Shown piece after piece: positions 57,213 to 57,456 of a stretch of DNA of 61,740 nt. This DNA comes from Christensenellales bacterium (lineage in GTDB: Bacteria; Bacillota; Clostridia; Christensenellales; CAG-917). The stretch spans positions 1-61,740 of the forward strand of contig DBFJGL010000056.1 in assembly GCA_048394785.1 (NCBI GenBank), given 5' to 3'. A program made the position numbers and the translations under genes. The notes under the pieces are model-generated. The model ran no database searches and was not told where the DNA came from. It saw only the letters and a list, made by a program, of their open reading frames with translations. Every line of letters begins with the position of its first letter. Within the stretch, counting starts at the first letter, position 1.

Positions 57213-57239
57213 AAAAAACCACCATATTTGGTGGTTTTT
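57213..57239 (-). terminator. rho-independent terminator directly after the element-borne tRNA
   Basis: Stem CCACCA (57219-57224) / TGGTGG (57229-57234), flanked by an A6 run and a T5 run. On the minus strand the T-run follows the stem. Confidence 0.65.
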
Positions 57240-57242
57240 CTT

Positions 57243-57318
57243 TGGAGCTGCTAACCGGATTTGAACCGGTGACCTCGTCCTTACCAAGGACGTGCTCTAC
57301 CTACTGAGCCATAGCAGC
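57243..57318 (-). tRNA. tRNA-Thr (anticodon GGU), complete with encoded CCA, located inside the element
   Basis: Minus strand reads GCTGCTA-TG-GCTC-AGTAGGTA-GAGC-A-CGTCC-TTGGTAA-GGACG-AGGTC-ACCGG-TTCAAAT-CCGGT-TAGCAGC-T-CCA. All four stems are Watson-Crick paired. U8, G18G19 and TTC are present. Confidence 0.9.
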
Positions 57319-57379
57319 GTATATAGTTTTTTGCCGATTTTGTAGGGTTTCGGCAACCCTTGTTTTTGCGGCTGGCACA

Positions 57380-57388
57380 CCTTACCAA
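57380..57388. repeat. attR core (CCTTACCAA)
   Basis: Direct repeat of 14580-14588. The sequence to the right continues as the host tRNA 5' half. The sequence to the left is not tRNA-like. Confidence 0.7.
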
Positions 57389-57419
57389 GGAAGTGCTCTA
57401 CCTGCTGAGCTATATCAGC
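57382..57419 (-). pseudogene. 5' half of the disrupted host tRNA-Thr(GGU): acceptor through anticodon loop
   Basis: Minus strand reads GCTGATA-TA-GCTC-AGCAGGTA-GAGC-A-CTTCC-TTGGTAA, then GGTGTGCCAGCC... with no matching anticodon-stem strand or T-arm. Confidence 0.85.
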
Positions 57420-57427
57420 GAATACTG

Positions 57428-57456
57428 CTTATACTGTTGCTTGTCCGTCAGGTCGA
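57428..57456 (-). promoter_or_regulatory. possible host tRNA promoter
   Basis: On the minus strand: TCGACC (57456-57451), a 17-nt spacer, then TATAAG (57433-57428), ending 8 nt before the tRNA 5' end. The match to consensus is weak. Confidence 0.3.

Follow-up and report, generated by a model that had tools for sequence, protein, structure and literature searches.

The window, that is, the whole 61.7-kb stretch of DNA analysed, holds an att-bounded element of 42.8 kb (positions 14589-57379) that interrupts a host tRNA-Thr(GGU) gene within its anticodon loop. The element codes for a MobL relaxase (34248-35465), a coupling protein (T4SS-DNA_transf/TraG-D_C; 35452-37704), a VirB4-like ATPase (TraG P-loop/AAA_10; 44150-46729) and the tyrosine integrase P0001 (55534-56985, forward strand). 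The latter has 483 residues and combines a Phage_integrase domain (Pfam PF00589, E=1.4e-26) with an N-terminal SAM-like domain. Further genes code for a protein with an NrS-1-type primase-polymerase domain, a C5 methylase and large surface proteins. The presence of integrase, relaxase, coupling protein and VirB4-like ATPase within the att-bounded DNA identifies the element as an ICE. No phage structural-gene family was found among the 25 ORFs scanned against Pfam.

The interrupted host gene is read on the reverse strand and its two parts lie at the opposite ends of the element. The 5' part (tRNA positions 1-40; 57380-57419) borders the attR junction. The displaced 3' part (positions 32-76; 14544-14588, reverse strand) is found at the attL junction, in the direct orientation at the distal end that is typical of canonical tDNA elements, and is followed by the original host terminator of the gene (14513-14538, reverse strand). 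This 3' part was located when the att region was compared by BLAST with the remainder of the window, where it matches the complete tRNA carried by the element (see below) with E=1.4e-13. The two junctions have in common the 9-bp core TTGGTAAGG alone (57388-57380 at attR and 14588-14580 at attL), which corresponds to the 7-nt anticodon loop and 2 nt of its stem, GG. The crossover segment is thus an anticodon loop flanked by a symmetric anticodon stem, as in the Islander site 'A' class. When positions 57419-57380 and 14588-14544 are joined in silico at the core they yield a perfect 76-nt tRNA-Thr(GGT), whose host-derived halves pair with each other in the acceptor stem (GCTGATA/TATCAGC) and in the anticodon stem (CTTCC/GGAAG).

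The 5' part (57419-57380) is identical to the element tRNA at 36 of 40 positions and then diverges into TGTGCCAGCC..., which follows the core in the place where canonical attP sites have a contiguous 3' tDNA fragment. ARAGORN predicts no tRNA at the attR junction, whose Rfam score of 18.2 bits is below the gathering score of 29, and it predicts none at the attL junction. The statement of the first-pass annotation that the sequence joined to the host 5' half cannot complete a tRNA is thus upheld. No empty attB of the same species was found. When both flanking host genes were looked up by their exact proteins, the contigs recovered either carried the ICE or were too short. When metagenomes were scanned with the SDH_alpha-like protein of the flank, the relatives found, at 75-76% identity, had neither a tRNA-Thr nor a conserved upstream region.

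A complete tRNA-Thr(GGU) with encoded CCA is located inside the element at 57243-57318 (reverse strand). It is the sole tRNA, called as tRNA-Thr(GGT), that ARAGORN detects in the window, and its Rfam score is 73.5 bits against a gathering score of 29. An element spacer of 61 nt (57319-57379, reverse strand), in which the hairpins GGGTT..AACCC and TTGCCGA..TCGGCAA overlap, separates it from the core. The first-pass annotation had placed a whole, distinct tRNA-Thr(GGU) 63 bp inside the element and in the orientation of the broken gene; both programs recover this tRNA, the spacer being 61 nt long when counted from the 9-bp core and 63 nt when counted from the 7-nt anticodon loop. The element tRNA and the host gene are different at 7 of 76 positions, where the element tRNA features C5, G9, U16, G28, C42, A58 and G68. 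The element tRNA pairs with itself (GCTGCTA/TAGCAGC and CGTCC/GGACG), and the core is repeated in its anticodon loop.

The tRNA halves at both ends of the element and the repeats found next to them are those of a tyrosine integrase that recombines attP with an attB overlapping a host tRNA gene. The right (P') arm (57020-57152, forward strand) carries four arm-type repeats GTCTGCAAT at 57020, 57030, 57133 and 57144, and the left (P) arm (14589-14760, reverse strand) carries three (14703-14747). By chance, 0.79 matches to the motif GTCTGCAAW would be expected in the window; 8 are observed, and 7 of these are at the element ends, ~130-370 bp from the two junctions. The order of attP is core, 61-nt spacer, complete tRNA-Thr(GGU), terminator, arm-type sites and int. 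With the core on one side and the P' arm sites on the other, the element tRNA is placed inside attP; a cognate tRNA carried within the element boundaries is a feature of tRNA-dependent integration. The left arm also features a core-flanking motif that is tRNA-like but degenerate (TAGGGCAC...GTAGGGTTCGAGA), and a hairpin that resembles a weak terminator and faces the core (14641-14664). Homologous left arms are found at the related loci L009-L013, L016-L018, L023 and L053, and the core-facing hairpin, weak in the window, is strong in L018 and L023. Because of this hairpin, the element tRNA may be poorly expressed from the excised circle.

The host promoter of the interrupted gene (57513-57541, reverse strand) is a 12/12 match to the consensus, with TTGACA (57541-57536) and TATAAT (57518-57513) spaced by 17 nt. 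It lies ~85 nt upstream of the tRNA and supersedes the weak candidate proposed earlier at 57428-57456. The putative leader of ~85 nt (57420-57506, reverse strand) covers the sequence from the -10 box to tRNA position 1, and no terminator was detected in it. On the tRNA strand of the spacer neither a terminator nor a sigma-70-like promoter with at least 9/12 matches was found, which agrees with the earlier remark that the spacer has no convincing promoter. The closest signal is a weak -10-like CAAAAT, without TG and without a -35 box, 18 nt upstream of the element tRNA. Directly 3' of this tRNA, an intrinsic terminator with a 12-bp stem spans 57213-57240 (reverse strand); the terminator assigned to the element tRNA at 57213-57239 in the first pass is thereby confirmed. 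Its hairpin is flanked by A and T runs, so that it is bidirectional in form. In the predicted precursor (57506-57205) the element cloverleaf and the terminator are intact in both the minimum-free-energy and the centroid folds.

Many homologues of P0001 occur in metagenomes of gut and rumen and in Clostridia MAGs, those of Christensenellaceae among them. Every tRNA and anticodon-arm copy was mapped in the loci around them, and integrases of 40-77% identity were found to adjoin tRNA-Thr or tRNA-Ile junctions. The same order recurs at these sites: host promoter, truncated host 5' half (the stump), 48-64 nt spacer, complete tRNA, terminator and arm sites. This layout is present at 11 distinct tRNA-Thr(GGU) junctions (the window, L001/2, L014, L019, L021, L022/62/63, L024, L025, L051, L054/56 and L055/57), whose integrases are 46-77% identical to that of the window. 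A sister integrase clade (~40% identical) that targets tRNA-Ile(GAU) has the same layout at ~7 junctions (L027, L029-L032, L034 and L039). The first pass had suggested surveying whether the attP regions of related integrases carry a full tRNA; they do at these 11 Thr and ~7 Ile junctions, but not in L020 and L023, which have a 3' fragment. From GTAGAGCACGTCC-TTGGTAA to int, across the tRNA 3' half, the terminator and the arm sites, the two loci are 100% identical. Upstream of this stretch, L020 has a host promoter, a leader and a tRNA 5' half that make up a rebuilt gene of the canonical type, and L023 has the element left arm, as in an attP or a tandem junction. Locus L015 looks canonical, its promoter ending 17 nt before a full tRNA with no stump. 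In L010, core and tRNA are oppositely oriented. An IMG/VR scan for the double-anticodon-arm pattern in phages returned no hit.

The signals found in the window are shared by its relatives. Of 18 related loci, 14 have a promoter with 10-12 of 12 consensus positions upstream of the stump; in L051 the stump is within a tRNA operon, behind tRNA-Val. No intrinsic terminator separates the best upstream promoter from the element tRNA in any of the 18, and in each of them a terminator begins 0-4 nt past this tRNA. The spacers belong to mutually unrelated families. Homologues of the window spacer are found in L018, L051 and L054-57, and the canonical locus L020 has one inside its native leader. The spacers of L019 and L021 are 1 nt apart, and so are their tRNAs, whereas the two loci have unrelated flanks and stumps with 8 differences in 31 positions. 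Integrase, spacer and tRNA are identical between L054 and L055, found in two different hosts. By these sequence comparisons, spacer and tRNA evidently travel with the element.

Conservation of the element tRNAs was analysed in the 8 distinct tRNA-Thr sequences carried by elements. They have no non-pair across 21 stem positions, and 7 of these 21 pairs covary in a fully compensatory manner. Some of the stumps have decayed, namely in the D-arm of L024 and in the distal unit of L025. This pattern points to purifying selection on the element tRNAs, which is indirect evidence that integrants may need them. A hypothetical chimera of host 5' half and element 3' half would have the mismatches A5.G68 and U28.C42 in the window, and a chimera of this kind has at least one stem mismatch at 8 of the 10 junctions compared (6 of 7, plus L054 and L055, both with C5.T68). 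Mismatches at most junctions fit the view that a whole tRNA removes the need for matching element and host halves. Avoidance of a defective chimera is not the sole reason for the layout, since in L051, where the chimera has no mismatch, the host and element 5' halves are identical.

The anatomy of the locus and its conservation among relatives can be regarded as nearly certain. A full mechanism in which the host promoter drives expression of an element tRNA that functionally replaces the interrupted one is considered probable on the basis of these sequences. The junctions show that the lambda-type integrase recombined attP with the host anticodon loop through the 9-bp core. The host gene was left as a dead 5' stump and a 3' part displaced by 42.8 kb, and the element tRNA, which has the orientation of the stump, came to lie 61 nt downstream of it. 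Transcription from 57541-57513 would then run via leader, stump and spacer into the element tRNA, much as the first-pass annotation had proposed from its own promoter candidate, and end at the element terminator. RNase P and 3' trimming would free the tRNA, as from any multi-tRNA precursor, and the tRNA would take over the job of the interrupted gene at its native expression level. By carrying a whole, internally matched tRNA the element would be freed from the need of a 3' half compatible with the 5' half of each host. Conservative excision at the 9-bp core should restore the host gene exactly. The first-pass annotation proposed that excision could be costly to the host; such a cost is not expected, because recombination at the core would reseal a perfect host tRNA, as obtained by the in silico rejoining, for as long as the 3' part is intact.

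Three other readings of the locus were weighed against this mechanism. The element tRNA could be driven by a weak promoter of its own in the spacer, as in phage Fionnbharth, its place behind the host promoter being incidental. A CAAAAT or AAAAAT sequence indeed precedes tRNA +1 by 17-19 nt in the window, L018, L051 and L054, the -10 box of the native tRNA promoter in L015 is at the same distance from its tRNA as the CAAAAT of the window, and the spacers of the Ile clade feature an extended -10-like TGcTAAACT at -17. Against this stands that the Thr-clade spacers match only 1-2 of 6 positions of a -35 box and have no TG, none of them reaching the 9/12 threshold, and that the sequence homologous to the window spacer is, in L020, the interior of a leader of ~115 nt downstream of a perfect promoter. 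Moreover, spacer families that are unrelated in sequence are nevertheless all found behind strong host promoters without an intervening terminator. An own spacer promoter is accordingly held to be quite unlikely. The complete tRNA might also be a passive by-product of the way in which attP originated, for instance by aberrant excision, and be unneeded by the host owing to other tRNA-Thr(GGU) genes or to alternative decoding of ACC/ACU. Complementation of the lost host tRNA-Thr(GGU) may indeed not be needed, L020 has a native tRNA-Thr leader to which the spacer is homologous, and the same integrase family includes the canonical L020 and L023, besides L015 with its canonical appearance. However, the 8 element tRNAs keep their stem pairs, covarying ones included, while adjacent stumps decay, the terminator is kept directly after every element tRNA, and the layout persists across integrases that are only 40-77% identical and across two tRNA specificities. 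An origin by capture is, furthermore, compatible with a present function, and an idle by-product appears unlikely.

The last reading is that integration was canonical and rebuilt the full tRNA at 57243-57318, the stump at 57380-57419 being an older, unrelated scar. The arrays of stump-and-spacer units found in L025, L029, L031 and L039 show that scars can accumulate. Nevertheless, the far 3' part pairs with the stump (A5-U68 and U28-A42) and not with the 5' half of the full tRNA, which has C5 and G28, and the full tRNA is identical at 76 of 76 positions to that of L018, a locus from a different MAG (human gut) whose integrase is 70% identical to that of the window. By its compensatory base pairs the far 3' part thus belongs to the stump, so the complete tRNA derives from the element, and canonical integration beside an old scar, a most improbable reading, was rejected.

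The non-canonical attP is equivalent to a canonical one with ~100 bp (spacer, tRNA 5' half and second core) added between the core and the 3' half, and its arm sites are ~100-115 bp further from the core than in L020/L023. The homology of the window-type spacer to the native leader of L020 suggests that aberrant excision captured a rebuilt tRNA together with part of its leader. The attP has two cores in direct orientation, of which core 1 was used in the window and core 2 is the anticodon loop of the element tRNA. Excision between this loop and the far core would leave behind the stump, the spacer and a chimeric tRNA, and would release a canonical attP. The arrays of stump-and-spacer units mentioned above could also be produced by unequal crossing-over between repeated 5' halves. 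In L009, L013 and L023, left-arm-core junctions are fused to element-type 3' halves, which fits the insertion of a second element into the tRNA of a resident one. The tRNA carried by the element of L014 is similar to the stump of the host gene in L001, suggesting that hosts and elements exchange tRNA sequences.

A tentative extension, rather doubtful at present, is that alternate use of the two cores lets the element switch between modes that replace and modes that rebuild the host tRNA, drives tRNA turnover and ends in host dependence. If so, every switch would swap element and host halves and would mark the chromosome with a stump-and-spacer scar and a chimeric tRNA, and the element tRNA would also offer further elements a place to integrate. 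With time, the tRNA-Thr and tRNA-Ile genes of the host would turn over horizontally. Once the 3' part had decayed, the host would be locked to ICE tRNAs that are expressed only when integrated behind the host promoter.

In the attP of Haemophilus phage HP1, homology reaches beyond the fragment of the target tRNA and takes in one or more whole tRNA genes downstream, so that the tRNA operon stays intact, and the target tRNA of HP1 is rebuilt by the contiguous 3' fragment. The window differs in that nothing contiguous rebuilds the target tRNA. A closer parallel is the tRNA-dependent lysogeny shown experimentally in actinobacteriophages, namely Fionnbharth, LeBron, Cain and Gaia (Guerrero-Bustamante & Hatfull, mBio 2024, PMC10865867). 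In these phages the core is short, no tRNA is rebuilt, and a cognate tRNA of the element complements the loss (PMC10865867). Both systems feature a tyrosine integrase with arm-type sites, an attB in a host tRNA gene and a tRNA of the same anticodon on the element. Neither rebuilds a tRNA, the core having 8-17 bp in the actinobacteriophages and 9 bp in the ICE of the window, and in both canonical and non-canonical members are mixed among close integrase relatives. The principle of disrupting and complementing a tRNA gene is not new with this locus; it has been experimentally established since 2024 (PMC10865867).

The two systems also differ in several respects. The actinobacteriophages are temperate phages of Actinobacteria, whereas the element studied here is an ICE of gut Clostridia with relaxase, coupling protein and VirB4-like ATPase. 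The phage tRNA is elsewhere in the genome, only that of Gaia being reported downstream of int, while that of the window sits within attP, 61 nt from the crossover and ahead of the P' arm sites. It has the orientation of the target and apparently lacks a promoter, so that integration brings it behind that of the host. The Fionnbharth tRNA, in contrast, has its own promoter, as determined by a reporter assay, and read-through from a host promoter is not mentioned (PMC10865867). Essentiality of the element tRNA was shown for the actinobacteriophages, whereas in the ICE of the window it is a conjecture. A possible further case is the Lactobacillus johnsonii prophage Lj965, which is presented, in the passages of PMC10865867 and PMC3714127 that cite it, as not rebuilding a tRNA and carrying a cognate one. 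Note that Lj965 is a prophage and the window element an ICE, and that their likeness is as described in those citing papers.

The locus also shares with the canonical tDNA islands and ICEs of the Islander model (PMC4383910) a tyrosine integrase, a crossover in the anticodon loop, a displaced 3' tDNA fragment and an adjacent intact tDNA. Unlike in canonical islands, the intact tDNA is wholly element DNA and not a composite of host 5' and element 3' parts, and a host 5' fragment is found 61 nt upstream of it. The arrangement differs as well from the '5' fragment' class of Islander (159 islands), in which the island lies between fragment and tDNA (PMC4383910). No report of this strategy in an ICE, or of an attP-embedded tRNA that uses the host promoter, was found in open-access full text. 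What is new here is thus the ICE context, the embedding of the tRNA in attP and the apparent use of the host promoter, the principle itself being known from actinobacteriophages.

The finding extends the break-and-replace tRNA strategy, hitherto demonstrated only in actinobacteriophages, to conjugative elements of gut Clostridia (Christensenellaceae and relatives) and to two tRNA specificities. Expression of the element tRNA would then depend on integration and match the native level of the interrupted gene. The layout may also bear on host range: a target would need to offer only the 9-bp core and integrase-binding flanks, with no requirement for an element 3' half that matches the host 5' half. 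Islander-type tools would score the island as canonical, since it shows both a complete tDNA and a 3' fragment at its distal end; they would misplace its boundary by ~100 bp and miss the foreign origin of the working tRNA. The element tRNAs resemble native tRNAs of other hosts, which points to mobile elements as agents of tRNA gene replacement.

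The order of truncated host tRNA 5' part (the stump), spacer and complete element tRNA is not confined to tRNA-Thr(GGU) genes. It is also found at tRNA-Ile(GAU) in a sister integrase clade (~40% identical; loci L027, L029-L032, L034 and L039). A tRNA-Ala gene adjoins some of these loci, which may for this reason lie within rRNA or tRNA operons. The spacers of the tRNA-Ile clade feature a conserved TGcTAAACT positioned 17 nt upstream of the tRNA that could be an internal promoter. At least two stump-and-spacer units are arranged in tandem upstream of the complete tRNA in L025 (3281-3540), L029, L031 and L039. 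The 5' half of the L025 element tRNA is identical to the inner stump-and-spacer unit. The tandem units have the appearance of scars, left either by repeated rounds of integration and alternative excision or by unequal crossing-over.

The spacer of the window element carries a hairpin that, together with the TGTTTTTG behind it, has the form of an intrinsic terminator on the strand opposite to the tRNA (57344-57360, plus strand). This terminator-like structure faces outward from the element, in the direction of the host promoter. Conservation of the hairpin (GGG..GCCGA..CCC; GCCGA..TCGGC) extends to the L018, L051 and L054 spacers and to the native leader of L020, a canonical relative that rebuilds its tRNA. 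The motif TAGGGCAC has three matches in the window, two of which are in the att arms, one per arm and in the same orientation (14616-14623 and 56993-57000, minus strand). Relatives carry it in their left arms as part of a degenerate version of the tRNA stretch GTAGAGCACNTCC that adjoins the core; TAGGGCAC may be a core-type integrase site.

The junctions differ among loci. One integrase, P0004, is found with several junction states (L009-L012). In L010 (7340-7944) a right arm and an element tRNA in opposite orientation come after a left arm and core. A set of loci termed 'class B' (L009, L011-L013, L016, L017, L026 and L053) has the integrase gene (int) next to the 3'-half junction rather than the tRNA junction. 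Otherwise near-identical elements (L001-L012) differ in gene content between int and the right arm, a stretch that is a cargo hot spot. Its genes include one of 162 aa together with one of 238 aa, one of 287 aa, one of 428 aa with a DUF4238 protein, and one for a 594-aa DUF4365-like protein. L001 has additional sets of arm-type repeats.

A short way into the window ICE from its left end, a perfect extended promoter (TTGACA-18-TGnTATAAT, 12/12) is predicted to drive the downstream gene coding an 82-aa Xre-type HTH protein, and the two (15019-15332, plus strand) are probably the ICE regulatory switch. They are followed by the gene of a 788-aa protein (15336-17702, plus strand) that features Listeria-Bacteroides repeats and a carboxyl-terminal LuxR/GerE HTH domain, an unusual combination. 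Listeria-Bacteroides repeats are also present in a 2235-aa protein (24835-31542, plus strand), and the ICE codes for a further large protein of 1459 aa (37607-41986). A protein with an NrS-1-type primase-polymerase helix-bundle domain and a C5 cytosine methylase (52487-54487, plus strand) are encoded directly upstream of a conserved 260-aa gene, a 90-aa gene and int. Of these, the second overlaps the int start; its 90-aa product has no Pfam match and may be the excisionase.

Metagenome contigs often end within the element tRNA (positions 17-31; L003, L005, L006, L010, L058 and L059). The presumed cause is a split in the assembly graph, brought about by the repeat of the 5' half ~100 nt away. 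Junctions of this kind are expected to be under-represented in assemblies.
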